Shown: in pieces, positions 6,986-22,603 of the stretch
Position numbering within the stretch: position 1 is the first letter of the stretch
Layout of the letters: each line of letters opens with the position of its first letter
NCBI GenBank assembly: GCA_028681135.1
Contig: JAQUJC010000007.1
Coordinates: 57-64,056 of the forward strand
Direction of reading: 5' to 3'
Origin: Kiritimatiellia bacterium
Lineage (GTDB): Bacteria; Verrucomicrobiota; Kiritimatiellia; CAIQIC01; Lenti-01
DNA length: 64,000 nucleotides
The notes under the pieces: generated by a model
What the model saw: only the letters and a program-made list of their open reading frames with translations
The model's database searches: none
Told to the model about the DNA's origin: nothing
Made by a program: the position numbers and the translations under genes

Positions 6986-7014
6986 CTCTCTATCTGTTTT
7001 CGCCGCCGTTAGCT

Positions 7015-8607: not shown

Positions 8608-9156
8608 ATGAAAATTCGTTCAATTGTTATCCGCAGTTTCAAAGCAATGCGGTATCTATGGCCTTGGTTTCTTTTCGCTCGTTTTACACGGCCAATACCG
8701 CCCGGATTATGGTTGGCTAATGGGTTCCTACAACGAGTTCTCCGTATCGGGGGGAAGATACCATGGATGGTCCATTATACATCCTATGTAAGTGGCCATA
8801 TCCAAATCGGGGAAAATGTGTGGAAATCATTTGCGTTGAGCGGGGGGTGCTATATGCAAGGGCGTAATGGGATTTATTTGGGTGACAACGTGTTATTTGC
8901 GCCAGGCGTGAAAATAATTTCCGCCAACCATGATCCTCGGGATATGGCGACTTGGCTGCCGTCCCCACCGATCCGGATTGGTCACCGATGTTGGATTGGA
9001 GTGAATGCGGTCATTCTGCCCGGGGTAGAATTGGGGGACGAGTGTATTGTCGGAGCGGGTGCAGTTGTAACTCAGAGTTTCCCGACAGGTAGCATCATTG
9101 CGGGTGTTCCGGCAAAGACCATCGGATTCAACACGTCAGGGAAAACAAAACAGTGA
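8608..9156 (+). CDS. Hexapeptide-repeat O-acetyltransferase (WcaF / maltose O-acetyltransferase-like)
   Basis: 'NVLFAPGVKIISANHDP...IRIGHRCWIGVNAVILPGVELGDECIVGAGAVVTQSFPTGSIIAGVPAKTI' is a WcaF-like left-handed beta-helix. The stop overlaps the start of the next gene. Confidence 0.7.
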   Translation: MKIRSIVIRSFKAMRYLWPWFLFARFTRPIPPGLWLANGFLQRVLRIGGKIPWMVHYTSYVSGHIQIGENVWKSFALSGGCYMQGRNGIYLGDNVLFAPGVKIISANHDPRDMATWLPSPPIRIGHRCWIGVNAVILPGVELGDECIVGAGAVVTQSFPTGSIIAGVPAKTIGFNTSGKTKQ

Positions 9157-10232
9157 AGATCGTCACCATCGTCGGAGCCCGACCCCAGTTTATTAAGGCT
9201 GCGGCGGTGAGTCGAGTGCTCCGCCAGGATGTTCGCGAAGTTCTCGTTCATACCGGCCAACACTATGATGACAACATGTCACAGGTGTTTTTCGACGAAC
9301 TCGAGATTCCACGGCCGGACTACAACTTGGGCATCGGTTCCGGCGGCCATGGGGTGCAGACCGGCGCCATGCTGGCGGGCATCGAGGAGATTTTGCTGAA
9401 GGAGAAGCCGGACCGGGTGCTGGTCTATGGCGACACAAATTCGACGCTGGCGGGAACGCTGGCGGCGGCGAAATTGCATATCCCGGTGGCGCACGTGGAA
9501 GCGGGGTTGCGCAGCTTCAACCGGCGTATGCCGGAGGAAATCAACCGGGTGTTGACGGATCATGTGGCCGATCTTCTGTTTTGTCCCAGCAAGACGGCGG
9601 TTGCTAATCTGACTGCGGAGGGGGTGCATGACGGCGTTCATCTGGTGGGCGATGTGATGTACGAGGCACTGATGCATGCCGTTACCCTCGCACATCAAAA
9701 ATCCGATGTGCTGGAGCGCCTAAACCTAACGCCGAGCAGCTATGCGTTGGCGACCATCCACCGTGCCGAGAACACCGATGATCCGGAACGACTGGCCCGG
9801 TTGATGGCGGCCTTGCAGGAGGTTTCCTGCAAAATGCCGGTGATTTTCCCGGTCCATCCGCGGACGCGCGGCAAACTCGGGCCTTTGGCTGCCGGCGGGG
9901 ACTTGCGCTTGTTAGACCCCCAGGGCTATCTGGATATGGTCCGTCTGGAGGCAGGAGCATCCGTCATCCTGACCGACTCCGGCGGCATCCAAAAAGAGGC
10001 CTATTGGCTGCGAGTGCCGTGCGTGACCTTGCGCGACGAAACGGAGTGGGTCGAAACCGTGGCACAGGGATGGAATGTGGTGGCGGGAGCGGATTGCGAT
10101 GTAATCTTAGGCGCCGCCCGGCAGCCCGTTCGTCCGAAGACGCGCGACGATGCCTACCGGGGCGAAGGCAGTGTGATGCGGTTGACCGCAATTTTGGCCG
10201 GGAATGCCGGAGCGGGGGGGGGGGGCGAATAA
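9153..10232 (+). CDS. wecB: UDP-N-acetylglucosamine 2-epimerase (non-hydrolysing)
   Basis: 'MKIVTIVGARPQFIKAAAVSRVL...VHTGQHYDDNMSQVFFDELEIPRPDYNLGIGSG...DRVLVYGDTNSTLAG...HVEAGLRSFNRRMPEEINR' are canonical WecB/MnaA motifs. There is a G12 tract at 10214-10225 at the 3' end. Confidence 0.85.
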   Translation: MKIVTIVGARPQFIKAAAVSRVLRQDVREVLVHTGQHYDDNMSQVFFDELEIPRPDYNLGIGSGGHGVQTGAMLAGIEEILLKEKPDRVLVYGDTNSTLAGTLAAAKLHIPVAHVEAGLRSFNRRMPEEINRVLTDHVADLLFCPSKTAVANLTAEGVHDGVHLVGDVMYEALMHAVTLAHQKSDVLERLNLTPSSYALATIHRAENTDDPERLARLMAALQEVSCKMPVIFPVHPRTRGKLGPLAAGGDLRLLDPQGYLDMVRLEAGASVILTDSGGIQKEAYWLRVPCVTLRDETEWVETVAQGWNVVAGADCDVILGAARQPVRPKTRDDAYRGEGSVMRLTAILAGNAGAGGGGE

Positions 10233-10235: not shown

Positions 10236-11564
10236 ATGAGTGCACCGCGTCCCAAACTGCTGTTTCTGGCGTATCCTTTCCCGCCGTCGCCGGCCATTGG
10301 CGGGGTGCGGGCTTGGGGGATGGCTAAATATCTGTCGCGGTTGGGCTGGCAGGTCACCGTCGTCACCCCTGATCCATCCGGGAGGGTCTCGCCAGCAGAG
10401 ATGGAAGAGGCGGAACGGCAGTGTCGCCAAGAGGGAATTACGCGGTTGTTCGCCGGGGAATTAGAGGTCCGCTCCGGCGAGGCGGCGCAGCGGCTGACTG
10501 TCGGACGTTGGGAACGGTGTCGGCGGCTTTTTGTTCGCCGTGTTTTCCGCTGCATGGGCATGGGATTGGAAGAACGCTGGTGGCGGACCTGTCTGGTGGC
10601 GTGTTCACGGCTGGCACCGGGCGATTGCGATGTGGTGCTGGCGACCGGATCACCGTTCAGTGTTTTTCTGGCTGCGCGCCGGATCGCCCGGCGGCTGGAG
10701 GTTCCCTTCGTGCTGGACTATCGGGATCCTTGGTCCTTGGCAATCCACGGTGCCGCCTGGAACAAACTCTGGCGGCGGCCCGTGGAACGCAGGGTGTTGC
10801 GCGAGGCGGCGGCCACGCTGATTGTTTCGCCGTCGTTGGCCCGGAGCCAGACGGAGGCCTTTCATCTTTCATGCCCACCGGTCGTGATTCCCAACGGCTA
10901 TGATCCCGAGTTGTCGAAAGCGGTCATTCCGGCGGTTTTTACCGATTTCAGCGTCGTGTATGCGGGTAATTTCTACGTGGGGCAACGAAAAATCGATTCA
11001 GTGGTGCGGGCGATCAAAAGGGCCTCCGAGATTTCGCGCGGAAAGATCCCAATGCCGATTCGGCTTCATTATTATGGGCGGGACATCCCGCACGTGGAAG
11101 CCGCCGTCCAACGTCACGGTGCCGAAGGACTGGTGGAGTGTCACGGCCGGGTGCCTCGGACGGAAGTGCTTGCGGCTATCAAGGGGGCGGGATGCGCGGT
11201 CGTCATCGCCAGTATTCGGGAACGCGTGGGGTTGACGGAACGCGGCATCGTGACGGGCAAGTTATTCGAGCCGCTGGGGCTGGGCGTGCCAATTTTACTG
11301 GTGGCCCCCGAGGACAGCGATGCAGCGAAGATCGTGGAGGGATCCGGTGCGGGGCGCAGTTTTCGCGCCTCGCAGGCAGAGGCGATGGCGCACTGGCTGG
11401 TCGAATGCGCGGACGGTAAATCCGGTCGGCGCTATGAACCGCCCGCCGCCTTTTCCTGGCCTGTTTTGGCTCAAACGGCGGAGGGCATCCTGGCGGCCTT
11501 GATGCGACAGGATCGCGCGGGTCTTCCCAATCCAGGGTGTGAAATGAATTCCCATGATGAGTAG
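10236..11564 (+). CDS. Glycosyltransferase (GT4-like)
   Basis: 442 aa. The N-terminus 'KLLFLAYPFPPSPAIGGVRAWGMAKYLSRLGWQVTVVTPD' is a GT-B fold N-domain signature. The C-terminal half has a Glycos_transf_1-like region. Confidence 0.6.
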   Translation: MSAPRPKLLFLAYPFPPSPAIGGVRAWGMAKYLSRLGWQVTVVTPDPSGRVSPAEMEEAERQCRQEGITRLFAGELEVRSGEAAQRLTVGRWERCRRLFVRRVFRCMGMGLEERWWRTCLVACSRLAPGDCDVVLATGSPFSVFLAARRIARRLEVPFVLDYRDPWSLAIHGAAWNKLWRRPVERRVLREAAATLIVSPSLARSQTEAFHLSCPPVVIPNGYDPELSKAVIPAVFTDFSVVYAGNFYVGQRKIDSVVRAIKRASEISRGKIPMPIRLHYYGRDIPHVEAAVQRHGAEGLVECHGRVPRTEVLAAIKGAGCAVVIASIRERVGLTERGIVTGKLFEPLGLGVPILLVAPEDSDAAKIVEGSGAGRSFRASQAEAMAHWLVECADGKSGRRYEPPAAFSWPVLAQTAEGILAALMRQDRAGLPNPGCEMNSHDE

Positions 11565-12936
11565 CCCTTTCAAGACCGTTCCCGTGCAGAAGGTCCAGAG
11601 CCGGGAAGATCGGCGCTGGTCGCGGCTGGCGTTCCTCGGGGCGCTCTATTATCTGATCGTCTATGCTTTGGCCACCAAATCGGAATATAATCTGCAAATC
11701 GTATGGTTGGGTGCCGCTTTGCTCGGACTGATCATGGTGCCTTTATTCGCGCAACATGTGAGGCTTTCTTCGCTGCCGCGTGAGGGTGTCTTGCTGGGTC
11801 TGTTTTTGCTGTGGTCCTCGACCGGCTATTTCGTTGTCGAGGAAAGATACTTGTTTGGCCGATATCTGCATTTGCTGGCGGAACTGTCTTTGATTGTCGT
11901 TGGCATATCGTTAATCCTCCAACATTCTGGCGCGGTAAAGTGGTTCCATCTCGCTTTCCTGATCGTGGCCATCGCCGCTATTTTATCCTTCGGCGAACCC
12001 ATAGCCATGTCTTCCTTGTCTGCGGTCGATCCGATGCGGGCGGAACTCGAGTCCGCTAATGCTTTTGGAGGTGCCAGCGCAATAGGGGTGATCAGCGCGT
12101 TGGCCCTGTTGCCGGAAGCCCGGCGCCTTTGGACCCGCGCCGCGCTTGTCGCCGGAGGGATACTGGCGTTCTATGGTGTTTTACTTTCGGCGTCGCGCAC
12201 GGCCTTTCTGACGCTGCTGGTGATCGCTGTTTGTTGGCCGACGCTTTGCCTGGCCAGTACCGGCCGGTTTAAATGGACGACGTTGATTGTCTCCGGGGCC
12301 GTTCTCCTGCTGGCGTACAGCGCCTACGTGTATATCATCCAGGAGACCTACATGGGCGAACGCTTCAGTAAGAGCGTGAACATGGAGGACAACAGCACCC
12401 GGATTCGCTTCGATTTGGCGATCACCGGCTTGAAGATATTCGCCAACAATCCTCTGGTCGGATGTGGCCTCGGGCAATTTGGGGTCGCCTCCGGAACGGG
12501 ATACTATGCACACAATGAATTCGTCGAGATTGCCGCTACCACGGGACTGCCCGGCTTGGCGTTGTATTATTCCATGTATGCCGTTGCCTGGCGGCGGTTG
12601 TCCAGAAGCCTGCGTGTGATCGTTGACCCCCTGGCTCGCTATCGCGTAAACATCGCCCGGGTGTCCCTGCTTATTCTGGTGATTACGGGATTGGTTTCCA
12701 CGCCCAACTTCCTCAGCAAACCCTCCATGTTCCTGCTGGCCACGGCCGTGGGCATCGCCCACTGGGCGGAGGGGGTGGCCCGGACCGCCGCGATGGGCAT
12801 TCCCCTCGCCGTCAGGCCGGGGCCAATTCCGCCTGGATTCCCGGGATGGGCGCGGCCTTTCCAGCCGTTTGCCGCTGGTGCGGCAAACGGGCTGGCCTCG
12901 GGAAAATGCGCGTGGAACGGCAGGACAAAGGAATGA
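11554..12936 (+). CDS. O-antigen polymerase/ligase family (Wzy_C) membrane protein
   Basis: 460 aa, polytopic. 'LLSASRTAFLTLLVIAV' and 'GCGLGQFGVASGTGYYAHNEFVEIAATTGLPGL' match the Wzy_C H-N-x-x-x-E motif. Confidence 0.7.
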   Translation: MMSSPFKTVPVQKVQSREDRRWSRLAFLGALYYLIVYALATKSEYNLQIVWLGAALLGLIMVPLFAQHVRLSSLPREGVLLGLFLLWSSTGYFVVEERYLFGRYLHLLAELSLIVVGISLILQHSGAVKWFHLAFLIVAIAAILSFGEPIAMSSLSAVDPMRAELESANAFGGASAIGVISALALLPEARRLWTRAALVAGGILAFYGVLLSASRTAFLTLLVIAVCWPTLCLASTGRFKWTTLIVSGAVLLLAYSAYVYIIQETYMGERFSKSVNMEDNSTRIRFDLAITGLKIFANNPLVGCGLGQFGVASGTGYYAHNEFVEIAATTGLPGLALYYSMYAVAWRRLSRSLRVIVDPLARYRVNIARVSLLILVITGLVSTPNFLSKPSMFLLATAVGIAHWAEGVARTAAMGIPLAVRPGPIPPGFPGWARPFQPFAAGAANGLASGKCAWNGRTKE

Positions 12937-12940: not shown

Positions 12941-15004
12941 ATGTTGAAAGCAGCATATTCGGTTTTGCCAGATCGCCTGAAGATCGAGGTTCGCCGCCTC
13001 CTCGACAACCGTGTGGATCGCAAGTTGCTCCGGGCAGAAGAACGGTTGCTGGTGAGGGAGGGGGAGTGGCTATCAGATCATGGTCTGGCCGATGTCCTCA
13101 CGCGGGAAGACTGGCGTCGCCGACAACCGATTTCCCGGCAGCGGTTGCGCTGGATGCTCGGTCTGGACCCGTGGCCGGAGCGGACGCCGCTGAAAGCAAC
13201 GATCACGGGCACGATAAAACAAGCGGATTGCCGGATCGAGAAAGTCGTCTTCGAAAGTCGGCCCGGGTTATTCGTTACAGCCAACTTCTACGTCCCGCAA
13301 GATGCTCCGGGACCGTTACCCTGCGTCATCTATCTCAATGGACATAGCACGGCACTCGACGGGGCGAAAACGGCCCACCAGACTCCGTCGCTATGGTATC
13401 CGGCAAACGGTTTTGCACTGCTGGTGGTCGATCCACTGGGGTTTGGCGAAATTCCCGGCATCCATGCGGGCACGCACCGGCTCAACTGGTGGCATTGGCT
13501 TTCGCAGGGCTACACGCCGGCCGGGGTGGAGGTGTGGAATGCCATGCGGGCCTTGGATTGGCTGGAAACCCGGCCAGAGATCGACTCGGCGCGGATTGGC
13601 GTGACCGGATTGTCCGGCGGTGGCGTGATGACCCAGTATCTGGCTGCTCTGGACGACCGGGTGGCCGCCGCCGCGCCGTCGTGTTCGACCTATACCCTCG
13701 GCACCCAGGTGGCCTTGGGGCTCATCCCCCGCCAGTGCGACTGCACGTTCTATCCCAACGTGTATCGAATGGATTTTCCCGAAGTCCTCGCGTTGATCGC
13801 GCCTCGGCCGCTGTTGATTCTCGGTGGCCGCAAGGACCCAATCTTTCCCCCGGTTGGGTTTGGGCAGGCGTACCGACGAACAAAACGGATCTACGATCTT
13901 TTCGATGAACAGGACGAAATGGAGCCCCGTATTCAGCTTGTGCAAACCGATGCCGGCCACACGGACACCCCGGCATCGCTCGTCAAAACGCACCAGTGGA
14001 TGTGCCGTTGGCTTCGGGATCGGGCGGAGAGTTCCTCACGCTTGGAGCGCCCAAAGCTCTTGCTCGAATCGCCCGAAACCTTGCGCTGTCTGAAAGAAAC
14101 TTCGGCTTCCGCCGTGAACGACCATGTCCACGACGTCTGGTTTGCGCCGTCGCCCGCGGTCCCATTGGACCGCGGCGAATGGGAGAGCCGCAAGAAAGAC
14201 CTGTCCGACATTCTCCGGACCCGTATTTTCGGATGGTTCCCGCCAGGTGACATTCCTTTCCGAACCCGGCGAATCCGCGCCAATGGCGGATATGCGGACA
14301 AATTCGCCGAGTTTGGTGCCTTTGAGTTCGACTCCGAGCCGGGAGTGCCGGTGCGGGCGTATTTGTTGCAGCCCAGGGAGCGGTCCGGCCCCGTGCCGCT
14401 CGTCGTTTGGATCAAACGGCCGGAGGAACACGTCCACTTTCCCGACGTGGACGAGTTCCATGCGCTCCTGCGCTCGCATGCGGTGCTGGTTCTGACGCCG
14501 CGGTTCGCGGCGCGTCCGCTGTCCGGGCGCGCGTTCACGCGAATCGAGCGGACGGCGGCGGTGGTCGGAAGAAGCGTCGCCGCCATGCGCGTTTGGGACG
14601 TGCGGCGGGCCGTGGCCTGGGCGCTCCTCGACCGTCGGCTGGCGATCTCTGAAACGACGGTGTATGGCTGTGGGGAGGCGGGTCTTGCGGGTCTGTATGC
14701 CGCCGTGCTGGATCCCGCCATCGAGCACGTGGTGTTGCGCGAGCCGCCCACGTCCCATTTGACCGGATTCGCCTTGCCGACCATCTTGCGCGATACCGAC
14801 GTCGATGAAGTCGCCGGGCTGCTGGCACCGCGCCGCTTGACGCTATTGGCCGCTCCTGAGGGCACGCTAGCGTGCACGCGCGCGATCTACGAACTGACCG
14901 GTGCCGGCCAGGCATTCGGCCGGGCGCCCAGCCTGCCCAAAGCCATTTCCAGGTCCCTGCGCCCCGTTGCGGTTACGCCTGGCCAAGGAGTCGAATCATG
15001 CTGA
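12941..15004 (+). CDS. Alpha/beta-hydrolase (acetyl-xylan-esterase/dienelactone-hydrolase-like), candidate polysaccharide esterase
   Basis: About 688 aa from Met 12941. A nucleophile-elbow 'GLSGGG' (GxSxG) sits after a beta-strand-rich region. It lies inside the EPS operon. The family assignment is tentative. Confidence 0.5.
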   Translation: MLKAAYSVLPDRLKIEVRRLLDNRVDRKLLRAEERLLVREGEWLSDHGLADVLTREDWRRRQPISRQRLRWMLGLDPWPERTPLKATITGTIKQADCRIEKVVFESRPGLFVTANFYVPQDAPGPLPCVIYLNGHSTALDGAKTAHQTPSLWYPANGFALLVVDPLGFGEIPGIHAGTHRLNWWHWLSQGYTPAGVEVWNAMRALDWLETRPEIDSARIGVTGLSGGGVMTQYLAALDDRVAAAAPSCSTYTLGTQVALGLIPRQCDCTFYPNVYRMDFPEVLALIAPRPLLILGGRKDPIFPPVGFGQAYRRTKRIYDLFDEQDEMEPRIQLVQTDAGHTDTPASLVKTHQWMCRWLRDRAESSSRLERPKLLLESPETLRCLKETSASAVNDHVHDVWFAPSPAVPLDRGEWESRKKDLSDILRTRIFGWFPPGDIPFRTRRIRANGGYADKFAEFGAFEFDSEPGVPVRAYLLQPRERSGPVPLVVWIKRPEEHVHFPDVDEFHALLRSHAVLVLTPRFAARPLSGRAFTRIERTAAVVGRSVAAMRVWDVRRAVAWALLDRRLAISETTVYGCGEAGLAGLYAAVLDPAIEHVVLREPPTSHLTGFALPTILRDTDVDEVAGLLAPRRLTLLAAPEGTLACTRAIYELTGAGQAFGRAPSLPKAISRSLRPVAVTPGQGVESC

Positions 15005-15855
15005 CTGTCGCCCAATTCGCGGAGCAGAAGAAACAACTCGGCCATCGCATCTACGAGCATGCGGGGTGGTATTGGGAGGAAACCTATCCGTTTTATTGCA
15101 AGTCGGCCTACGTGTTCAAACCCATCGACCGCGGCGCGGCGCAGCCGCCCTGGCTGCGCAGCCGGCTGGGGTACGACCACCAGGTGCATCGCCCGGAAGA
15201 CGGCAACCAATGGCGCGCCACGATGGTGATGGAACGCGAGGCTTTGGACGATTACAGCTTGCAGAAGCTGCCGTCGAAAAAACGCAATCAGGTGCGGCGC
15301 GGCCTCGACCATTGTGCGGTGCGGCCCATCGCCGACATCAACCAGTCTGTGGAACGAATGCGCGAAATTTCTGTGGCGCAGGTTCGCCGGCAAGAACAGG
15401 GGGCCGGCGCGCCGTATCCGGCCGCCAATCTGGTCCGCGGTGCCGAAGAATGGCGACAACGGGTCCGGCGCGAGTTCGCGTTGCCTGGCCGGGACTGGTG
15501 GGGGGCGTTCGTGGGCGACGAACTGGCCGCTTATGCGCGCACCTATTGGGTGGAGGGCGATTTGATTTTCCAGCAGACAAAAATTGATCTGGCCTTCAGC
15601 AAATCCTGCCCGATGGACGCCTTGTATTTTACGATTTTGACGGATGCCTCCCAAACGCCCGAATGCCAGCGCGTCATCAATGGTCGGCCGATGCACGAAT
15701 CGCTAAACCATTTCAAAAGCGAATATCTGTTCCGAGCGGTGCACTATCCCTATTACTACTCACACGCCCGATTCACGGAAGCGGCCAAAAAGATATGGCT
15801 TGGGTTCCGGCAGCTAGGCCACGCGGCAAAACGCCGTCCGAAAAACAGCCGATGA
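14998..15855 (+). CDS. FemAB-like / Acetyltransf_6 (GNAT-fold) family protein, paralog 1
   Basis: 285 aa from the ATG at 14998, overlapping the upstream stop. It is weakly similar to paralog 2, for example 'LPSKKRNQVRRGL' versus 'LESKRRSSIRKAL'. Operon context supports the assignment. Confidence 0.5.
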   Translation: MLTVAQFAEQKKQLGHRIYEHAGWYWEETYPFYCKSAYVFKPIDRGAAQPPWLRSRLGYDHQVHRPEDGNQWRATMVMEREALDDYSLQKLPSKKRNQVRRGLDHCAVRPIADINQSVERMREISVAQVRRQEQGAGAPYPAANLVRGAEEWRQRVRREFALPGRDWWGAFVGDELAAYARTYWVEGDLIFQQTKIDLAFSKSCPMDALYFTILTDASQTPECQRVINGRPMHESLNHFKSEYLFRAVHYPYYYSHARFTEAAKKIWLGFRQLGHAAKRRPKNSR

Positions 15856-16658
15856 CGGTTCACGACTATATTGCCGCTAAGCAGGTCGCCGGGTTCGACC
15901 TGCACCTTCACGACGGTGTCTGGTGGCAGACGCTGCGCCGGGGGTATTGCAAGCCGGCTATTCCTCTGGAGGAGGTCGATCCCGCGAAACAGCGGCCCGC
16001 ATTCGCCAAAATGGCGATCGGTTTTGCGCACCGCGTCCCGGAGGATGCCCCGCGCTCCGGATACTGGCGCCATTTGGTCGTCCGTCAGCCTCAAGTCGCC
16101 GAATTTGCGCTGGAGAAGCTCGAGTCCAAGCGCCGCAGCTCGATCCGGAAGGCCCTGCGTAATAACGAAATCATCCGGATCGACGATTTAGACCGATACC
16201 GCAGGGACATGACCGACATTGTCATCTCCACGGCTATCCGGAACAAGAAAGGCCATCTGCCTGAATATTATCGGGACAGCAACGACGAATGGTGGCAAAG
16301 CATTCGGCGGGTTTCGGGGTTCACCGAGTTCTGGGGCGCCATCCATGAAGGCCGCATGGTCGCCTATACGGCGATCCAGGTCGCCGGCCGCCGTGCCGTG
16401 TTCGATGCCAGCAAGAGCATGACCGAATATTTCCGGGCGCGGCCGAACGATGCCTTGCGCTTCACGCTGCTAGAATCGTGCAAAGCACGCGGGAATGTCG
16501 ATGAAATCATTTCGGGTGGGTGGAGCGCGGATAAGCCGACCTTGAACACCTTCAAGGAGAGTTTCGGCTTTTCCGGCCAGAACATCCCCTTTATCCGCAA
16601 AATGTGCTTCGGGTTGTTCAAGAATCCCGTCCGCGCTCCGGGTCATGTCGATGCCTAG
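15852..16658 (+). CDS. FemAB-like / Acetyltransf_6 family protein, paralog 2
   Basis: 268 aa, with an ATGA overlap to the upstream gene. 'LEKLESKRRSSIRKALRNNEIIRIDDL...FWGAIHEGRMVAYTAIQVAGRRAVFDASKS' is the FemAB-family pattern. Confidence 0.6.
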   Translation: MTVHDYIAAKQVAGFDLHLHDGVWWQTLRRGYCKPAIPLEEVDPAKQRPAFAKMAIGFAHRVPEDAPRSGYWRHLVVRQPQVAEFALEKLESKRRSSIRKALRNNEIIRIDDLDRYRRDMTDIVISTAIRNKKGHLPEYYRDSNDEWWQSIRRVSGFTEFWGAIHEGRMVAYTAIQVAGRRAVFDASKSMTEYFRARPNDALRFTLLESCKARGNVDEIISGGWSADKPTLNTFKESFGFSGQNIPFIRKMCFGLFKNPVRAPGHVDA

Positions 16659-16682
16659 CGCGAAAACCATGGAGAACCGGGA

Positions 16683-17837
16683 ATGATGGCGGCGTCTCTG
16701 CGCGGACTGAACATCTGCTTGGCCACCAGCGGTCACAATGCGACCGACGACCGGATTTTCTTCAAGGAGGCCCGGTCGCTGGCTAAAACCGGGGCCAACG
16801 TAGTCCTGCTATGCGCTCAGGGCAAGAAGCACCCCGATCATCCCGGTGGCGTCCGGGTCTTGAACTACGATGGCGGCGGGGCATTGAAGCAGCGGCTGGC
16901 CACTGTCGGGAAACTGGAACGGGCGATTGCCGATTTGAAGTGCGATGTGGTGCACTGCCACGAGCCGGACAGCCTGCTCGCTGCGCTCCGGGTAAAGCGG
17001 ACATCGGGGGTGAAAGTCATCTTTGACAGCCATGAACTGTGGGCCGGCTCATGGGCCGGTCGCTTTCCGCGTCCGCTCTGGCCGCTGGCGGGGGCCGCCT
17101 ACCGGTTCTGCGAGCGGCGCTGGCTCGCGGAGTGCGATGCGGCCATCGGTGCTAGCCATGCCATCACGGATTATCTCGCGGCGAGTCTCGGGCCGGAGCG
17201 GGTGGCGACGATCCTGAATGTCCCGGCGGTCGACGTGTTCGGCGAAATCGAACCCGCAGCATGGGGCGACTCGACGGTGATTTGTCACGAGGGGCATTTG
17301 ACCTTCGCCCGCGGCCTGAAGACGATGGTGCGGGCTATGCAACGGGTGGTGCAGCAGCACGCCGCAGTCTTGAAGATCGTCGGCGACGTATATGGCCCGG
17401 AGCGGGCGTGGCTGGAGGCCTATGTTTGCAAGCACGGACTGGAACACGCGATTGTGCGCACAGGCTGGCTGCCGTACCCGGAAGTGGGGCGGGCTATCGC
17501 GCCCTGCCAGATCGGCATCGTCGGGTTTCTGCCGTGTCCGAACCATTGGATTGCGGCGCCCAACAAGTGCTTCAACTATCTTCTCTACGGGTTGCCGGTT
17601 CTCGGACCCGCATTTCCGCACTCCCATTTCGCGATCCTGGAACGGGAAGGGTGCGGCGTACTGGCGGATCCCACCTCGCCGGAATCCTATGCCGAGGCAA
17701 TTTCTCGAATGATCACCGAAAAAAAAGCGACGCTCCAAATGGCCGCAACCGCCCACCGCCTGTCGCGGGAAAAATATCGCTGGACGCACATGGAGCCCAT
17801 TTTGTTCGACCTGTATCGCCGTGTTGTCTCCACGTGA
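16683..17837 (+). CDS. Glycosyltransferase family 4
   Basis: 'LNICLATSGHNATDDRIFFKEARSLAKTGANVVLL...CDVVHCHEPDSL' plus a C-terminal Glycos_transf_1-like region. Confidence 0.75.
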   Translation: MMAASLRGLNICLATSGHNATDDRIFFKEARSLAKTGANVVLLCAQGKKHPDHPGGVRVLNYDGGGALKQRLATVGKLERAIADLKCDVVHCHEPDSLLAALRVKRTSGVKVIFDSHELWAGSWAGRFPRPLWPLAGAAYRFCERRWLAECDAAIGASHAITDYLAASLGPERVATILNVPAVDVFGEIEPAAWGDSTVICHEGHLTFARGLKTMVRAMQRVVQQHAAVLKIVGDVYGPERAWLEAYVCKHGLEHAIVRTGWLPYPEVGRAIAPCQIGIVGFLPCPNHWIAAPNKCFNYLLYGLPVLGPAFPHSHFAILEREGCGVLADPTSPESYAEAISRMITEKKATLQMAATAHRLSREKYRWTHMEPILFDLYRRVVST

Positions 17838-17847
17838 AGAAGAACCA

Positions 17848-18834
17848 ATGAGCAAGAAGAAACTAACCGCCCGCCCCCTCGATCCCAGTGATCGCGAAAA
17901 GTGGGAGACGTTGGTGGCGCGGCACGGGTGCCTGTTCGATTCGGTGCGCTGGACAGACATCTTCGGCCCGGCCATGCGGCGCATCGGCATCTACAATGCC
18001 GGTGGGATCCTGCGCGGCGGATTCTGCGCACAGGAACAGCGCCGTTGGGGGCTGCGGATTTGGCGGAATCCCCCCTACACGCCCTACGGCGGTCCCTTCT
18101 ACGAGCCGCTGGCGTCCAATCCGGCCGCGCGCACGGACGAACAGCGGGACGTCGTGGACGCCATGGCGGACTATCTGTCGTCGCTGGGCGCGGCGGGCGT
18201 CTTCCTTGGTCTGCCCCCGGATGTCGCCGACGGACTGCCCTTCTACTGGCGGGGATGGAAAGTCGTGCCGCTCTACACATACCGGATCGATTTGATGCAA
18301 GGCGAGGATACCTTGCTGGCGACGATGTCGCCTGCGCAGCGGAGCCACGTCAAAAAGGCGGAACAGGCGGGCATTTCAGTTGACGAGTCGGCGGAGCCCA
18401 ACGACCTGCGGGAGTTGATTGGCAAAACCTATGCCCGGCAGCGGAAAACCTGGGATCATTCCACCTGGGACGGCATCGTGGCTGCATTTTCGCCGCCGCA
18501 CGGCAGCTTCTGCTGTATCGCGCGGCAGAACGGCGTCGCACTGGCCGGCGTGTTCGTCGTCCACGACTCGCGGACGGCCTACAACCTCGTTTCCGGATTC
18601 GATTCGGAACAGGGCAATGCGTCCGCCGGAGCGCTGGTGAGATGGCGAGCCATTCTTCATGCCCAGCGGCTGGGGCTGAAAGTTTTTGACTTCGAAGGGT
18701 CGGTCGTGCCGCGCATCGAGCGCTTCAACCGGGCGTTCGGCGGCGTCTTGACGCCGTGCCTCACGATTCAAAAAGCGTGGTTGCCGGTGGAAATGGCCCT
18801 GAAGCTCAATCCGCGCTATCGCAATCGGTTCTGA
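17848..18834 (+). CDS. FemAB-like / Acetyltransf_6 family protein, paralog 3
   Basis: 328 aa from MSKKK. 'MSPAQRSHVKKAEQAGISVDESAE...AYNLVSGFDSEQGNASAGALVRWRAILHAQRLGLKVFDFEGS' is a FemAB/lipid II-glycyltransferase-like C-terminal GNAT-fold signature. Confidence 0.6.
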   Translation: MSKKKLTARPLDPSDREKWETLVARHGCLFDSVRWTDIFGPAMRRIGIYNAGGILRGGFCAQEQRRWGLRIWRNPPYTPYGGPFYEPLASNPAARTDEQRDVVDAMADYLSSLGAAGVFLGLPPDVADGLPFYWRGWKVVPLYTYRIDLMQGEDTLLATMSPAQRSHVKKAEQAGISVDESAEPNDLRELIGKTYARQRKTWDHSTWDGIVAAFSPPHGSFCCIARQNGVALAGVFVVHDSRTAYNLVSGFDSEQGNASAGALVRWRAILHAQRLGLKVFDFEGSVVPRIERFNRAFGGVLTPCLTIQKAWLPVEMALKLNPRYRNRF

Positions 18835-18835: not shown

Positions 18836-20074
18836 GTGAGTTTTCGCATGGACCATCGTATACCGACCAAACTAGATCACGTCGCGCTGCTGGCGACGAA
18901 CTATCCGTCGCCGGCCGAACCGGCGCGCGGCACGTTCGTCCGCCAATTCGCACAGGCGGTGGCGCGCCAAGGTGTGCGCTGCACGGTCATCCAGCCCGTC
19001 GCGTTCCACCGCGCCGGACGGCGGCCAGCCGAGTTCTTCCAAACCACGGAAAGTGCCGGCGGCGGGCGTACTGTGGAAATCTTTCGTCCGCGCTACTTGT
19101 CGCTGTCCGCGCGAGAATCCTTTGCCTGGCTGGGACCGCTGAATCCATCACTCTTCACCTTGAGTCGGTTCGCCGGGGCCGTGCGCCGTGTTCTCCGGGA
19201 GCAATGCCTGCGCCCCGACGCTTTGTACGGGCATTTTCTATTTCTGGCCGGTGCCGCCGCCGTTCGTGTGGGACGCGATCTGGACCTGCCGGCATTTCCA
19301 TGCGTGGGGGAGGGGGAGCTCTGGACCGTCCGACAATTCGGCGTAGCCAAAGCCCGTGCGGAGTTGGAGCTCGCCACCGGGTTTCTAGCCAATTCTTCGG
19401 CGCTTAAACAACTGCTGATCCGGGATCTAGATGTCGCGCCCGAGCGTATCGGCGTATTTCCAAACGGCGTGGATCTCGCCGAGTTCGCGCCGCACGACCG
19501 CGCCGCCGCGCGGCGTAAGCTCCAATTGCCGACCGATCAGTTCCTGGTGGCGTCCGCCGGCAATTTTCTGGTAAAAAAAGGAATCGTGCGAGTCGGGGAG
19601 GCCATCGCAGGGCTCGACGGCGTGGCTGGCGTGTTTGCCGGCTCGGGCCCCGCGCCACCGACGGCGCCCAACGTGGCCTTGTGCCGACGCGTATCCCACG
19701 CGGAAATGCCGGAACTGCTGTCCGCGTGCGACGTGTTCGTTCTCCCGACCGTGGTGGAGGGGTCGTGCAACGCCTTGGTCGAAGCCATGGCCTGCGGGTT
19801 GCCCATCATTAGTTCGCTCGGCGAGTTCAACGACGATTTGCTGGCCGACGATATGTCCCTGCGGGTGGATCCGCTGGACGTCGGCGCTATTCGGCAGGCC
19901 ATTGTGCGATTGCGGGATGACGCCACGCTGCGTGCCCAGATGTCCGCGGCGGCTTTGCGGCGGGCGCGGCAGTTCGACATCGGCGAACGTACACGCCGGA
20001 TGCTGGCTTTCATGAACAATCAGATGCATAAAAACATCGGAACGCGCTCGCCGGCGGTTGCGGAGGACACATGA
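18836..20074 (+). CDS. Glycosyltransferase family 4
   Basis: 'VALLATNYPSPAEPARGTFVRQFAQAVARQGVRCTVIQPVAF' and 'CDVFVLPTVVEGSCNALVEAMACGLPIISS' match the GT4 E-x7-E region. Confidence 0.7.
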   Translation: MSFRMDHRIPTKLDHVALLATNYPSPAEPARGTFVRQFAQAVARQGVRCTVIQPVAFHRAGRRPAEFFQTTESAGGGRTVEIFRPRYLSLSARESFAWLGPLNPSLFTLSRFAGAVRRVLREQCLRPDALYGHFLFLAGAAAVRVGRDLDLPAFPCVGEGELWTVRQFGVAKARAELELATGFLANSSALKQLLIRDLDVAPERIGVFPNGVDLAEFAPHDRAAARRKLQLPTDQFLVASAGNFLVKKGIVRVGEAIAGLDGVAGVFAGSGPAPPTAPNVALCRRVSHAEMPELLSACDVFVLPTVVEGSCNALVEAMACGLPIISSLGEFNDDLLADDMSLRVDPLDVGAIRQAIVRLRDDATLRAQMSAAALRRARQFDIGERTRRMLAFMNNQMHKNIGTRSPAVAEDT

Positions 20075-20757
20075 CGACGTACAGCGAACGGATTCTGAGC
20101 GGTGGCCGACTGGTTGCCTGGCAGCGGTTTGCGCGCTTCCGCGCAGCAGCGAAAGCGATCCAGCGTTTGGCCGGGCCTGTTGAAAAGCTGCTGGATATCG
20201 GGGCGGCGGACGGTATCGGGCTGCCCTTCCTGAAGACGGCTGCGAGACAGGTGGTCAGCGTCAACTACTACGAAAACCACACGCAGGAATTCCGGGCCGC
20301 ACATCCCGACGATCCGGTCCTGACCGCTGATGCCCGGGCCTTGCCGCTGGCCGATACGTCGTTCGACGCTTGCACGTCGTTTGAGACGCTGCACCTGGTG
20401 CCCGGACCGGCGGAACGGCGGAAATGCCTGGCGGAAATTTGGCGGGTGTTGCGGCCGGGCGGGCTTTTCGTCTGTTCGCTGCCGGTCGAGGTGGGCTATC
20501 CGGCCCTGATTAAGCTGGCGGCGCGCGCGGCCACGCGGCACCAGGTGGACGGCATGGGTTTCTCCCTGGCGCTGCGGCATTGCTGCTACCGGTGGAGCGA
20601 CCTCGAGCCATTCGACCGCGGCCGTCAGATCGGCTTCGACGTCCATCGTTTCGTGCGCGACGTCGGAAATATTTTTGTCGTTCTGCAAACCAAGGCGATC
20701 CCGATTCCCGTGCTTTTCCCCATGAATATGCTGGTCGTAGCCCGCAAACGTTCGTAA
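20071..20757 (+). CDS. Class I SAM-dependent methyltransferase
   Basis: 'LLDIGAADGIGLPFL' is motif I. 'LRPGGLFVCSLP' is the post-motif II region. The start overlaps the upstream stop. Confidence 0.65.
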   Translation: MTTYSERILSGGRLVAWQRFARFRAAAKAIQRLAGPVEKLLDIGAADGIGLPFLKTAARQVVSVNYYENHTQEFRAAHPDDPVLTADARALPLADTSFDACTSFETLHLVPGPAERRKCLAEIWRVLRPGGLFVCSLPVEVGYPALIKLAARAATRHQVDGMGFSLALRHCCYRWSDLEPFDRGRQIGFDVHRFVRDVGNIFVVLQTKAIPIPVLFPMNMLVVARKRS

Positions 20758-20771: not shown

Positions 20772-21722
20772 ATGGCACAAACCCAGTCATCCATTTGGCC
20801 GGAAGGGCGGTCGTTTGGACTGTTCCTGTCGCACGATATCGATCAAATCCACGACCGGGAACTCTGCCACGTCTTGGCGACGGCCAACCATATTCGCCGC
20901 ATCCTCGTGCAGGGCGAATCGGGACGCGTGGCGTTGGCGCTGCGGCGCCTGGGGCGGATTCTGTTCGCACCCAAACCGGTCGAGCAGGATTTTCAGACTA
21001 TTCTTGAAATCGAGGCGCGCCACGGCTTTCGCTCGACCTTCTTCGTGCTGCATGATCCTTATTGGAGCCGCAACGGTCCGCGCTATCGGCTGACCTGTCC
21101 CGAACTGCGGCGGATCGCAGATTTGATCCGCAAAGCCGGCGGCGAAATTGGGCTCCACGGCGGGGTCTCGTGCTTCAACCGGGCCGATTTGTATCGCGAG
21201 AGCCGTGCAGCGCTGCGCGCGGCGCTTGGTGTCGAAGTCGAGGGAATCCGCAATCATCTCCTGCAGTTTTCCGGCCCGGAGACCTGGTTGGCGCAGGAAG
21301 CCGCCGGATTCGTCTACGACGCCACGTTCGGATATTCCGACCGCCTGGGTCCGCGTGATGGCCGCACGCATCCATTTTTTCCCGTTGATCCCGCAACCGG
21401 GCGCACGCTCAAACTCGTTGCGCTGCCGTTGACGGTGATGGACGTGACCCTGTTCCGGTATTTGCGTATGGACGGCTCTGCGGCACTCGAAGCGGCCTGG
21501 ACTGCCATCGAACCCATTATCGCAGCGGGGGGGGTGGTTGCGTTACTGTGGCACAACAACTATTTCAATGATCCGGAATATCGCGACTGGCAGGCGACCT
21601 ACGAACACTTACTGGAGCGCCTGAGTGTGCGGAATCCCTGGTGTGCGACCGGCGCGGAAATCGCCGCTTGGTGGCGGCGCCGCGCTGATGTCTTGGACTC
21701 AAAAGAAACGGAACCATCATGA
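20772..21722 (+). CDS. Polysaccharide deacetylase-like (CE4/NodB-like) protein
   Basis: 316 aa from the ATG at 20772. 'GLFLSHDIDQ', 'RSTFFVL', 'EIGLHGG' and 'IRNHLLQFS' resemble NodB motifs 1-4. The assignment is tentative. Confidence 0.5.
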   Translation: MAQTQSSIWPEGRSFGLFLSHDIDQIHDRELCHVLATANHIRRILVQGESGRVALALRRLGRILFAPKPVEQDFQTILEIEARHGFRSTFFVLHDPYWSRNGPRYRLTCPELRRIADLIRKAGGEIGLHGGVSCFNRADLYRESRAALRAALGVEVEGIRNHLLQFSGPETWLAQEAAGFVYDATFGYSDRLGPRDGRTHPFFPVDPATGRTLKLVALPLTVMDVTLFRYLRMDGSAALEAAWTAIEPIIAAGGVVALLWHNNYFNDPEYRDWQATYEHLLERLSVRNPWCATGAEIAAWWRRRADVLDSKETEPS

Positions 21723-22603
21723 CCTCTACTCCTTCCGGGTCGTTCGAAGCCTGCGATCTTTGCGGGGCGACAGATTTCAAGCCGGTGGCCCAGCAGGGCG
21801 GATTCTGGATCTATCGCTGTCGCAATTGCGATTTGATTCAGGTCCGGCCTTTGCCCGCCGAGACTAAAGAGGTCAACCAGGACTACTGGCACGTCGATCT
21901 CGACAATCCCTCGACCCGCGTTTCCCGCTGGGGCAGCCGCTGCGTGTATCTCCACGGGTTGCGACGCATGGAAAAATGGACCGGCGCTGCGATCCGCGGG
22001 AAACGGCTGCTGGACGTCGGCTGCGGGATGGGTTTGTTTTTGGAAATCGCCCAGGAAGAGGGCGCGGTGCCCCATGGCCTCGATCTTACTCCGGAGGCGG
22101 TTGAAATGACCCGCCGGTTGTGTAAAATCGACACCGTGACGCAAGGCTATTTCGAGACGTGTGATGTGCCTCCCAACTCGTTCGACGTCGTCACTGGCTG
22201 GGGCGTGCTGCACCATACCCGGAGTCCCAGCCAATGGCTGGCGCAGGCCTACAACCTGCTGGTTCCGGGCGGCACACTGCTGGTGAAAATGCCCAATGTC
22301 GCCTTTACGGCAGCCGTTTCCAAGCTGAGCCCGGTGCTCCGGCGGCTGCATTTGCCGACCAGTCATTATTTGGCCTCGCGCCCGCCGTTGAACCTGTACG
22401 GATTTACCTGTCGAACGCTGACTGGCCTTTTGGAGAAAGCGTCCTTCGAGGTGCTGGCGGTCGAAAGCGCGCACATCCGCGGCAACGCGGGTTTTCTTGG
22501 CGGGCTCACGACGGCGGCGACGGTTCTGGCAACCGCTCTGACGCTGGGAAAAATCAATTTTAGCCCTGTTATTCTGGGTATTGCGAGAAAGTCGAAGAAA
22601 TAG
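21719..22603 (+). CDS. Class I SAM-dependent methyltransferase with N-terminal Cys4 zinc ribbon
   Basis: 'CDLCGAT...YRCRNCDL' precedes 'RLLDVGCGMGLFLEIAQEEGAVPHGLDL' (motif I) and 'LVPGGTLLVKMPN'. Confidence 0.75.
   Translation: MTSTPSGSFEACDLCGATDFKPVAQQGGFWIYRCRNCDLIQVRPLPAETKEVNQDYWHVDLDNPSTRVSRWGSRCVYLHGLRRMEKWTGAAIRGKRLLDVGCGMGLFLEIAQEEGAVPHGLDLTPEAVEMTRRLCKIDTVTQGYFETCDVPPNSFDVVTGWGVLHHTRSPSQWLAQAYNLLVPGGTLLVKMPNVAFTAAVSKLSPVLRRLHLPTSHYLASRPPLNLYGFTCRTLTGLLEKASFEVLAVESAHIRGNAGFLGGLTTAATVLATALTLGKINFSPVILGIARKSKK

Follow-up and report, generated by a model that had tools for sequence, protein, structure and literature searches.

By interspecies complementation, Veith et al. (2020) found that VimA, a protein matching TIGR03019, decides whether serine or glycine is attached at N-2 of a 2,3-diamino uronic acid (PMC7468200). 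This transfer comes after deacetylation by VimE and gives 2-N-seryl or 2-N-glycyl sugars; the paper, which makes no mention of tRNA, extends this role, as a proposal, to the PEP-CTERM FemAB proteins (PMC7468200). In vitro, Orf11 uses Gly-tRNA to aminoacylate an amino sugar (PMC12945691), and Caulobacter HfsK acts together with the deacetylase HfsH (PMC5362036). The original prediction for the DNA described here held that the substrate of the exopolysaccharide-linked FemAB subfamily is not established, a statement that the VimA, Orf11 and HfsK precedents make partly out of date (PMC7468200, PMC12945691, PMC5362036). In the literature searched, we found no demonstration that VimA, HfsK or any other protein of the TIGR03019 kind depends on tRNA.

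The operon and its Fem-like genes

The window, the whole 64-kb stretch of DNA that was analysed, comes from an uncultured organism. By its predicted gene products, it carries a Wzx/Wzy-dependent exopolysaccharide operon with the following genes.

4734-5684, + strand: Gfo/Idh/MocA oxidoreductase, possible sugar 3-dehydrogenase (Pfam GFO_IDH_MocA 76.8 bits plus C-terminal domains; top NCBIfam matches below cutoff, including the archaeal UDP-GlcNAc 3-dehydrogenase model at 57.8 bits)
6278-6985, + strand: left-handed beta-helix (hexapeptide) sugar N-acetyltransferase-like protein (Pfam Hexapep 90.8 bits; NeuD/PglB/VioB family 90.6 bits, below cutoff)
6775-8511, + strand: Wzx-type flippase (Pfam Polysacc_synt_3 55.7 bits; longest ORF, the real start probably later)
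9153-10232, + strand: non-hydrolysing UDP-GlcNAc 2-epimerase, WecB type (Pfam Epimerase_2 350 bits; TIGR00236 314 bits, above cutoff)
11554-12936, + strand: Wzy-type polymerase (Pfam Wzy_C 64.4 bits)
12941-15004, + strand: Est711, alpha/beta-hydrolase resembling carbohydrate esterases (Pfam GCE_fung and AXE1)
14998-15855, + strand: F1, short Fem-like tandem-GNAT protein, 285 aa (paralog of F2, E 5e-25)
15852-16658, + strand: F2, short Fem-like tandem-GNAT protein, 268 aa
16683-17837, + strand: GT4b, GT4 glycosyltransferase (Pfam Glyco_transf_4 66.1 bits)
17848-18834, + strand: F3, FemABX-fold transferase, 328 aa
18836-20074, + strand: GT4c, TuaC-like GT4 glycosyltransferase (Pfam Glycos_transf_1 59.8 bits; TuaC model 118.9 bits, below cutoff)
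20071-20757, + strand: MT1, SAM-dependent methyltransferase (Pfam Methyltransf_11 68.7 bits)
20772-21722, + strand: VimE-like (CE4-type) deacetylase (NF053580 VimE model, E 1e-28)
21719-22603, + strand: MT2, SAM-dependent methyltransferase (Pfam Methyltransf_23 74.7 bits)
22610-24472, + strand: U620, conserved membrane protein, paralog of U596 (two N-terminal hydrophobic segments; sole family match a weak Polysacc_deac_1, E 0.012)
24487-25524, + strand: F4, TIGR03019 FemAB-family protein in the variable slot X
25275-26786, + strand: GT4d, GT4 glycosyltransferase (Pfam Glyco_trans_4_4 75.1 bits; longest ORF, the real start probably near 25520)
26783-28573, + strand: U596, conserved membrane protein (only a sub-threshold NPCBM_assoc match)
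28575-29432, + strand: CE4 polysaccharide deacetylase, XrtA-system type (TIGR03006 242.8 bits, slightly below the 276 cutoff)
29544-30230, + strand: small priming phosphoglycosyltransferase (TIGR03025 204.7 bits, matching the C-terminal catalytic part of the model)
30252-31433, + strand: DegT/LegC/PseC-type sugar aminotransferase (TIGR04181 342 bits, PseC 238 bits, both below cutoff)
31795-33897, + strand: membrane-anchored UDP-GlcNAc 4,6-dehydratase, PglF-like (PseB and FnlA models match residues 360-646)

Three Fem-like genes interleaved with GT4 genes, and a fourth at 24487-25524, had been predicted. All four ORFs were found at those positions on the + strand, and GT4 genes are indeed their neighbours: GT4b lies between F2 and F3, GT4c after F3 and a further one after F4. 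They sit within one + strand run of polysaccharide-synthesis genes whose neighbours abut or overlap, as in the ATGA overlap of F1 and F2. F1-F4 are real genes, each with full-length orthologs in other contigs (40-99% identity).

Two distant pairs of Fem-like proteins

The predicted FemAB/Acetyltransf_6 membership stands for F3 and F4 and fails for F1 and F2. F3 scores 40.1 bits with Acetyltransf_6 (cutoff 22) and 34.9 bits with FemAB (cutoff 24), and F4 scores 75.7 and 36.9 bits; F4 also reaches 304 bits with TIGR03019 (cutoff 260), a model that F3 matches at 26 bits only and F1 and F2 not at all. With Acetyltransf_6, F1 (14.8 bits) and F2 (19.1 bits) fall under the cutoff, and neither has a FemAB or any NCBIfam match. 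On this sequence evidence, F1 and F2 form a shorter family of their own. The four copies are divergent, as predicted. BLASTP does not connect F1/F2 with F3/F4, and identity between F3 and F4 is only 23.5% over 170 aa; the four proteins therefore fall into two distant pairs and are no set of close paralogs. We placed the F3 start at 17848, not at the longest-ORF start of 17821, because its homologs are 325-328 aa. One source annotates an F3 homolog as a lipid II:glycine glycyltransferase.

F4 matches FemX by phmmer (E 4e-6) and also an Sbb17-type enzyme by sequence; its score with the FemX equivalog model is 33 bits, far under the cutoff of 500. All of the top six structural matches to the F2 model are enzymes that depend on aminoacyl-tRNA, and for F3 acyl-CoA tandem GNATs score clearly lower than aminoacyl-tRNA users. 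An aromatic-Lys motif is present in F1 (F-K within LNHFKSEY), F2 and F4, with the Lys kept in 52 of 54 members of the F1/F2 family. The F3 family has an invariant Arg at this key position instead (28/28 members), which hhalign places opposite the F2 Lys. A basic helix, RRxxIRK, is conserved in the F1/F2 and F3 families and aligns with a basic stretch of FemX. The acetyl-CoA loop motif Q/RxxGxG/A is absent at the expected position in all four proteins. F1 and F2 have about 85 residues ahead of the second GNAT domain, compared to about 145 in FemX. Four of the 54 F1/F2-family members also match Acetyltransf_1, and in one protein (P0096) an F2-type domain is naturally fused to a GT4. No TM-like or signal-like segments were detected in F1-F4, whose pI values are 9.4-9.8 (F1, 9.5). 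Most likely, judging from these features, they are Fem-type tandem-GNAT enzymes that are basic, soluble and located in the cytoplasm.

Free amines, replaceable slots and the proposed pathway

The single DegT gene and the Gfo/Idh/MocA gene, to which the original prediction attributed the free sugar amines, are both present and may give a free amine. The likeliest sources are the VimE-like and the TIGR03006-like CE4 deacetylases, which it had missed along with Est711, perhaps a further source. The VimE-like protein has no Pfam match, and its homologs (60-80% identity, many lineages) are named polysaccharide deacetylase family; as it scores 99.9 bits against a VimE cutoff of 440, the VimE substrate is not transferable to it. 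The CE4 deacetylase has no signal peptide or TM-like segment, and its orthologs carry Polysacc_deac_1 and DUF3473. Est711, which lacks TM-like segments and is read as cytoplasmic, matches CE7 acetyl xylan esterase/cephalosporin C deacetylase and CE15 glucuronoyl esterase structures in the PDB. Its place is always directly upstream of F1, and the pair recurs in L001, L004, L009, L010, L015, L018 and L019.

The operon core is conserved across 18 related loci. The order GT4c - MT1 - VimE-like - (MT2) - U620 - [X] - GT4d - U596 - CE4 deacetylase - primer - DegT is found in 8 further loci, including Thiocapsa rosea, with MT2 present in the window, L014 and L017. Core orthologs of GT4c are 67-72% identical, and those of GT4d (about 416 aa) 63-77%; U620 orthologs (52-75%) come after the VimE-like gene, directly or across one methyltransferase gene as in the window, and U596 orthologs always have the CE4 deacetylase directly downstream. 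GT4b orthologs adjoin F3 orthologs. In 3 loci the occupant of slot X is an F4 ortholog (72-75% identity in L016 and L017). Another 4 (L013, L014, L015, L018) have an ATP-grasp enzyme there, similar to RimK, cyanophycin synthetase or Ddl, and 1 (L012) has a GNAT; the slot-X GNAT of T. rosea is an ordinary one of the Acetyltransf_1/9 type. The Wzy gene upstream of the esterase-like gene is kept in related loci, and the slot after it contains Est711 and F1 (with or without F2) or, alternatively, a PaaK-like adenylating enzyme and an ATP-grasp-like protein.

On balance, we lean towards the hypothesis that F1-F4 put amino acids on amino-sugar amines of the polysaccharide after cytoplasmic deacetylation, the best-supported form of the predicted N-acylation given fold, motifs and gene context. 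We infer the donor, the acceptor, the pairing of hydrolases with transferases and the product as follows. The priming transferase and GT4 enzymes would build a repeat unit of N-acetylated amino sugars; the VimE-like deacetylase, the CE4 deacetylase and possibly Est711 would remove an acyl group in the cytoplasm; and the neighbouring Fem-like enzyme would transfer an aminoacyl group, most probably from aminoacyl-tRNA, onto the exposed amine. As acceptor we envisage either a nucleotide sugar or the repeat unit on undecaprenyl diphosphate, prior to its flipping across the membrane, and the conserved Lys (Arg in F3), with an aromatic residue before it, may be the counterpart of FemX Phe304-Lys305. 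It is reasonable to suppose that four paralogs may correspond to four acyl groups or positions. Several observations count against this pathway: F3 has Arg at the key position, the 64-kb window has no tRNA gene, the GNAT in T. rosea suits simple acylation equally well, and the ATP-grasp enzymes could link the amine of an amino acid to a uronic acid carboxyl, a different linkage.

That F1-F4 instead use acyl-CoA to re-acylate the deacetylated amines with acetyl or small acyl groups, and no amino acids, seems unlikely to us. Their Pfam family bears an acetyltransferase name, a few F1/F2 relatives touch Acetyltransf_1, T. rosea has its GNAT in slot X, and the authors of the HfsK study caution that GNAT donors vary (PMC5362036). 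However, the solved structures nearest in fold all belong to enzymes that use aminoacyl-tRNA, the acetyl-CoA loop motif is missing at the expected position, the Fem-type aromatic-Lys/Arg motif is conserved, the commonest occupant of slot X is an ATP-grasp enzyme resembling amino-acid ligases, and it would be pointless to take off an acetyl group merely to restore it. It is less probable still that F1 and F2, working with Est711, esterify sugar hydroxyls with aminoacyl groups in the way that MprF modifies phosphatidylglycerol, with F3 and F4 still acting as N-aminoacylases. Est711 would then remove an O-acyl group to ready the site, or edit the product, but alpha/beta-hydrolases may equally be amidases, and no Fem-fold enzyme is known to us that attaches aminoacyl groups to a polysaccharide through an ester bond.

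We regard as very improbable a non-catalytic role for some of F1-F4, as regulators or scaffolds. The reduced N-terminal lobe of F1 and F2 speaks for it, as does the example of HfsK, which binds c-di-GMP and shifts between membrane and cytoplasm and would be the model for a c-di-GMP receptor; against it, the candidate catalytic Lys/Arg and the basic helix are kept across hundreds of family representatives, and HfsK is itself thought to be enzymatic too (PMC5362036). We give hardly any credence to action on peptidoglycan precursors in the manner of classical FemX, with the operon placement due to chance: the weak FemX equivalog match of F4 and the glycyltransferase annotation of the F3 homolog point that way, but the former is far below cutoff, all four genes lie inside a single polysaccharide-synthesis run, their arrangement alongside glycosyltransferase and deacetylase genes is retained in different phyla, and a Fem-like::GT4 fusion exists.

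Comparison with described systems

F1-F4 share with FemX, FemA, FemB and MurM the tandem GNAT fold, the aromatic-Lys motif and the basic helix opening the second domain. Several paralogs occur in both cases, and in S. aureus they act in series. The context here is polysaccharide, not peptidoglycan; there is no coiled-coil insertion, the first lobe of F1 and F2 is much smaller, and Arg replaces Lys in F3. F4 is a full member of TIGR03019, the XrtA/PEP-CTERM-associated FemAB family, and as in PEP-CTERM loci the genes near it include a TIGR03006-like deacetylase and stp-like GT4s, whereas neither an exosortase nor a PEP-CTERM protein was found in the 64-kb window. Orf11/Sbb17 (PDB 9wqx) carries out Gly-tRNA-dependent aminoacylation of the streptothrisamine amino sugar (PMC12945691), but on a small molecule in an actinomycete antibiotic pathway, and identity is only 15-17%.

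The Wbp/Vim system of Porphyromonas gingivalis and Tannerella forsythia likewise has a deacetylase gene near a TIGR03019-related tandem-GNAT gene in a glycan locus, and WbpS-like asparagine-synthase genes occur in relatives of our locus (L001, L016, L019). The common logic would be removal of an N-acetyl group followed by placement of an amino acid on the sugar amine. In contrast, the deacetylase here is a distant VimE relative without about 160 N-terminal model residues, four transferases stand in place of one, the window has no WbpA gene, no clear WbpE gene and no T9SS in evidence, and the setting is a Wzx/Wzy exopolysaccharide operon rather than an A-LPS linker. HfsK and its paralogs CC2278 and CC1244 in Caulobacter crescentus are, by published description, FemX-like tandem-GNAT proteins genetically tied to exopolysaccharide (PMC5362036). 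Their proposed role is to acylate the amines that the cytoplasmic deacetylase HfsH exposes, and several serve one polymer; their genes are scattered in the genome, and HfsK, extended at its C-terminus, binds c-di-GMP. By analogy, deacetylation followed by aminoacylation at our locus would match the VimE/VimA and HfsH/HfsK systems and the in vitro case of Orf11. The idea of amino-acid decoration has already been published for other bacteria, and the present locus, with its probable decoration, extends it and does not open a new one.

Gene layout of the exopolysaccharide operon

One plus-strand run of abutting or overlapping genes, from 237 to about 33900, encodes a Wzx/Wzy-dependent exopolysaccharide system. 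Export, polymerisation and flipping are represented by a Wza-like exporter, a Wzy-like protein, a Wzc-like chain-length regulator, a Wzx flippase and a second Wzy. The sugar-nucleotide genes encode a Gfo/Idh/MocA oxidoreductase, two hexapeptide acetyltransferases, a WecB-type epimerase, a DegT aminotransferase and a PglF-like dehydratase, and the assembly and decoration genes encode five GT4 glycosyltransferases, two methyltransferases and a small priming phosphoglycosyltransferase. Four genes for Fem-like proteins (F1-F4) lie in this run, and three hydrolase genes adjoin them:

12941-15004, + strand: Est711, a cytoplasmic alpha/beta-hydrolase
14998-15855, + strand: F1
15852-16658, + strand: F2, overlapping F1 at ATGA
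17848-18834, + strand: F3, its start placed nine codons inside the longest ORF as set by homologs of 325-328 aa
20772-21722, + strand: VimE-like deacetylase (NCBIfam VimE NF053580, 99.9 bits, E 1e-28; no Pfam match)
24487-25524, + strand: F4
28575-29432, + strand: CE4 deacetylase of the XrtA-system type (TIGR03006, 243 bits vs a cutoff of 276)

One GT4 gene separates F2 from F3, one lies 3′ of F3 and one lies 3′ of F4, so the original prediction had both the positions of the Fem-like genes and their interleaving with GT4 genes right. The three hydrolase genes had gone unmentioned there. A search of the window for a dedicated tRNA gene found none.

The operon also contains a gene for a 23S rRNA intervening-sequence/bAvd-like four-helix-bundle protein (5782-6225, +; 102.9 bits), which recurs at other positions in related loci (L003, 344-706; L015, 12826-13194).

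On the 3′ side of the polysaccharide genes lies a SynChlorMet-type cassette (33894-38179, +) encoding two radical SAM/SPASM enzymes (ScmE-like, 380 bits; ScmF-like, 331 bits), a PqqD-like ScmD and a weak ScmC-like protein, all scoring below the equivalog cutoffs. Beyond it, about 4.5 kb downstream of the polysaccharide genes, 38414-47806 (+) encodes a 3130-aa secreted protein with seven SdrD B-like repeats, DUF11, SpaA-like and four MBG domains, and a Peptidase_C25 domain (gingipain/PorU family, 234.8 bits). PorU is the C25 enzyme that serves as the T9SS sortase, joining cargo to a seryl sugar. The closeness of this C25-bearing protein to the polysaccharide genes may be due to chance. The genes that follow (48359-52004, +) encode a signal-peptidase-I-like protein, an NTP_transf_5 family protein and an ABC transporter ATPase fusion, and resemble a peptide maturation and export set.

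Family membership and conserved residues of F1-F4

All four proteins had been described as FemAB/Acetyltransf_6 paralogs. Pfam HMM scoring upheld this assignment for F3 (Acetyltransf_6, PF13480, 40.1 bits vs a cutoff of 22; FemAB, PF02388, 34.9 bits vs a cutoff of 24) and F4 (75.7 and 36.9 bits against the same cutoffs). F1 and F2 reach only 14.8 and 19.1 bits for Acetyltransf_6, both under the gathering threshold of 22, and searches for FemAB matches even at E 10, or for any NCBIfam match, returned none. Thus two of the four fall in a different, unannotated family.

F4 is a full-length member of TIGR03019, the XrtA/PEP-CTERM-associated FemAB family (304.3 bits vs a curated cutoff of 260.35); F3 scores 26 bits with this model and F1 and F2 have no match to it. 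Among solved structures, F4 matches W. viridescens FemX (E 4e-6) and the Sbb17-type aminoacyl-tRNA-dependent peptide synthase (E 4e-5). A tandem pair of GNAT domains with solved Fem enzymes as the nearest folds, the arrangement of the FemABX type, was found. By BLASTP, F3 and F4 share 23.5% identity over 170 aa only. No exosortase family match was detected among the ORFs scanned in the window, and a six-frame search of the 64 kb for PEP-CTERM-like C-termini gave three chance PEP strings and no credible sorting signal. F4 is therefore a TIGR03019 member by score that lacks the family's name-giving system, at least within these 64 kb.

F1 and F2 are evidently paralogous (BLASTP E 5e-25, with 25% identity over 256 aa), and BLASTP against F3 and F4 gave nothing significant. 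The close F2 family comprises 26 clusters, none of which has a name or a precomputed Pfam domain. An exhaustive profile search retrieved 914 representative clusters at E ≤1e-3 (325 at ≤1e-10), mostly of 260-320 aa, so the F1/F2 family is sizeable as well as unannotated. It is widespread and is missed by the Pfam and NCBIfam thresholds. In one representative, P0096 (654 aa), a short Fem-like domain of the F2 type (residues 2-259) is naturally joined to a GT4 glycosyltransferase (residues about 338-652).

An AlphaFold model of F2 built from the family alignment was confident (pLDDT 93.2), with a complete second GNAT domain and a first lobe reduced to about 85 residues. With hhalign, a narrow F1/F2 alignment gave 27% probability against the F3 family and 4% against F4, and a broad profile of 54 diverse F1/F2 members gave 93% against the F3 family (E 3e-7, 163 columns). 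Acetyltransf_6 was matched at E <0.01 by 28/54 of these broad members, the strongest match having E 2e-7. A profile of the close F2 family searched against PDB sequences returned only chance alpha-amylase matches (E >1) and no Fem link. The predicted structure and the profile comparisons link F1 and F2 to the Fem fold.

As a motif reference we used FemX Lys305 and DhpH-C Lys329, each with an aromatic residue just before it. In DhpH-C, Lys329, which follows Phe328, is reported to be essential (PMC12945691). The aromatic-Lys pair is kept in F1 (LNHFKSEY), F2 (LNTFKESFGF) and F4 (HFDFKKYWGG), reading HFK, TFK and DFK, and in the FemX alignment the F4 pair falls where the chain runs on into Phe304-Lys305. 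Of the 54 broad F1/F2 members, 52 keep the Lys (Lys235 in F2) and 52 keep the Phe/Tyr before it. F3 reads IERFNRAFGG instead, with an Arg (Arg295) that is invariant in its family (28/28) and that hhalign sets opposite the F2 Lys. Equivalence of these Lys and Arg residues to the FemX position refers to sequence and profile alignment, not to structural superposition.

A conserved basic helix opens the second domain (KRRSSIRKAL in F2, with Arg95 in 53/54 members and the matching Arg165 of F3 in 28/28) and aligns with a lysine-rich stretch of FemX; by one proposal, a positively charged second-domain helix is where the tRNA acceptor stem binds (PMC12945691). Because none of the four proteins has the Q/RxxGxG/A acetyl-CoA loop motif at the expected position, and because all are basic (pI 9.4-9.8; no hydrophobic segments), aminoacyl-tRNA has indirect support as the candidate acyl donor of F1-F4.

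Neighboring hydrolases, acceptor sugar and variable slots in related loci

The original prediction took the sugar amines to arise from DegT and the Gfo/Idh/MocA oxidoreductase. With three hydrolase genes adjoining the Fem-like genes, this is probably not the main source. The VimE model describes a UDP-2,3-diacetamido-2,3-dideoxy-glucuronate deacetylase. The VimE-like protein scores far under the NF053580 cutoff of 440 and covers only model positions 162-429 (the C-terminal two thirds); as judged from its sequence, it is a distant homolog of VimE and not an ortholog. Its homologs, named polysaccharide deacetylases in the source records, number at least 250 clusters and reach 60-80% identity in Kiritimatiellia, Verrucomicrobiota, Competibacter and Thiocapsa. 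Among the matches listed, all were close (at least 56% identity) and none came from Porphyromonas. A PDB sequence search with the VimE-like protein gave no match. A 442-aa DUF7033 protein in one related locus (L014, 1-664), which is 31% identical to the VimE-like protein across 182 aa, may resemble full-length VimE more closely than does the 316-aa protein of the window.

The first domain of Est711 resembles CE7 acetyl xylan esterases/cephalosporin C deacetylases and CE15 glucuronoyl esterases. This esterase-family match is confined to residues about 100-330; the C-terminal half (about 350 residues) is without a match, carries GCGEAG at the point where one would look for a second nucleophile elbow, and may be a degenerate second hydrolase domain.

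A complete Wbp set, which makes the 2,3-diacetamido uronic acid, comprises WbpA, WbpB, WbpE and WbpD. The Gfo/Idh/MocA oxidoreductase and a hexapeptide acetyltransferase are assignable to neither WbpB nor WbpD. A Wbp pathway assembled from these two enzymes and DegT was rejected: no model reached its cutoff, and the UDP-GlcNAc 6-dehydrogenase WbpA was not found in the window. Because the single DegT gene sits with the PglF-like dehydratase and the priming transferase, the probable product is a sugar of the bacillosamine type and not a 2,3-diamino uronic acid.

Two conserved membrane proteins, U620 (22610-24472, +) and U596 (26783-28573, +), are paralogs of about 600 aa with 35% identity and two N-terminal hydrophobic segments; neither has a family or PDB match. 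U620 follows the VimE-like gene, with only the methyltransferase gene MT2 between them in the window, and U596 lies directly 5′ of the CE4 deacetylase. This pairing with deacetylases is kept in all related loci examined.

To compare loci, 18 relatives were fetched via F2 homologs and VimE-like homologs, and the window proteins were mapped onto them by tblastn. A core is kept at 45-85% identity in eight further loci, one of them in the cultured gammaproteobacterium Thiocapsa rosea. Its order is GT4c, methyltransferase MT1, VimE-like, (MT2), U620, slot X, GT4d, U596, CE4 deacetylase, priming transferase, DegT and, in some cases, PglF-like, where GT4c and GT4d are GT4 glycosyltransferases and slot X is the F4 position. 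MT2 lies within the core in the window, L014 and L017.

Slot X holds an F4 ortholog (72-75% identity) in L016 and L017, a 396-401-aa ATP-grasp enzyme resembling RimK, cyanophycin synthetase, LysX and D-Ala-D-Ala ligase in L013, L014, L015 and L018, and a plain GNAT in Thiocapsa rosea. A second variable slot, after Wzy, holds Est711 and F1, usually then F2, in the window and in L001, L004, L009, L010, L015, L018 and L019; in L012, L014 and L017 it holds a PaaK-like adenylate-forming enzyme and a weakly ATP-grasp-like protein instead. F3 orthologs always lie 3′ of an ortholog of the GT4 glycosyltransferase GT4b. Other genes found among the relatives encode asparagine-synthase-like amidotransferases, a formyltransferase and HisH/HisF-like proteins. 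Taken together, these comparative observations (the slots, the GT4b-F3 adjacency, the P0096 fusion and the amidotransferase and formyltransferase genes) mark the locus type as a platform on which amino sugars would receive varied acyl and amide decorations.

In L016 (1-5610 and 9238-10014), asparagine-synthase-like and HisH/HisF-like genes accompany a formyltransferase gene directly 5′ of the VimE-like gene. Sets of HisH/HisF-like and asparagine-synthase-like genes are used for acetamidino sugars. The L016 genes suggest formyl and amidino decorations within the same framework.

Proposed amino-acid decoration of sugar amines, its alternatives and its precedents

In the simplest reading of these loci, every variable slot would encode an amide-forming enzyme, and Fem-type, ATP-grasp, adenylating and GNAT enzymes would be alternatives for one role on amines exposed by the neighboring hydrolases. 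From fold, motifs and gene context, we lean toward F1-F4 decorating sugar amines of the polysaccharide with amino acids. This part of the original prediction stands as the best explanation of the locus; it is less novel than proposed, given the Wbp/Vim precedent, and the main amine source probably differs.

The linkage could differ from that simplest reading in two places. The ATP-grasp enzymes may join amino acids to uronic carboxyl groups and not to sugar amines; therefore, the slot argument backs amino-acid decoration more firmly than it does the exact linkage. F1 and F2 may, for their part, aminoacylate hydroxyl groups, in keeping with their esterase partner Est711 and a near-equal match to MprF. 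Amine aminoacylation remains our preferred reading for all four Fem-like proteins.

A more elaborate proposal, which we consider improbable, takes FemX, FemA and FemB of S. aureus, which act in series, as its model. F1-F4 would likewise act serially, extending a short peptide from a single amino sugar of the repeat unit, and a sortase-like enzyme would attach surface proteins to the free N-terminus of this stem, in parallel to the seryl sugar that anchors T9SS cargo. F1/F2 with Est711 would form a new class of glycan aminoacyl transferase. If so, the polymer would be a peptide-bearing polysaccharide.

Amino-acid-decorated sugars alter polymer charge and, in Porphyromonas, are the covalent anchor of secreted proteins. 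For the enzymes that add the amino acids, what is known comes only from genetics (VimA) or from association (TIGR03019, HfsK). A literature search on the tRNA dependence or donor of VimA, TIGR03019 proteins and HfsK found no biochemical study, and the Veith paper on VimA nowhere mentions tRNA (PMC7468200). The locus type described here would make the question testable, with a highly conserved core shared by Kiritimatiellia, Verrucomicrobiota and the cultured Thiocapsa rosea, and two slots with interchangeable enzymes: the polymers of strains differing only in a slot should show what each enzyme adds.

New here are the presence of four Fem-fold genes within a single operon, the family of short F1/F2 proteins together with its partner esterase and its fusion to GT4, and a widely conserved locus whose slots can change occupants. 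Other elements have precedents. PEP-CTERM FemAB proteins have already been suggested to make amino-acid-modified sugars, and vimA-vimE pairs have been noted in glycan loci of Pseudomonas, Aeromonas and Vibrio (PMC7468200, PMC13086638). Glycine transfer from Gly-tRNA to the amino sugar of streptothrisamine has been achieved in vitro with Orf11 (PMC12945691). Caulobacter HfsK is a FemX-like tandem GNAT protein with two paralogs, for which acylation of amines freed by the deacetylase HfsH has been proposed (PMC5362036). In the Wbp/Vim pathway, VimE is the proposed enzyme for removal of the 2-N-acetyl group, and VimA (PGN_1056, BFO_2568), which like F4 matches TIGR03019, sets serine versus glycine, as became evident when the T. 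forsythia gene was exchanged into P. gingivalis (PMC7468200). The Wbp/Vim pathway thus follows the same logic as that proposed for the slots here, in which an amine would be exposed by a deacetylase and then acylated.
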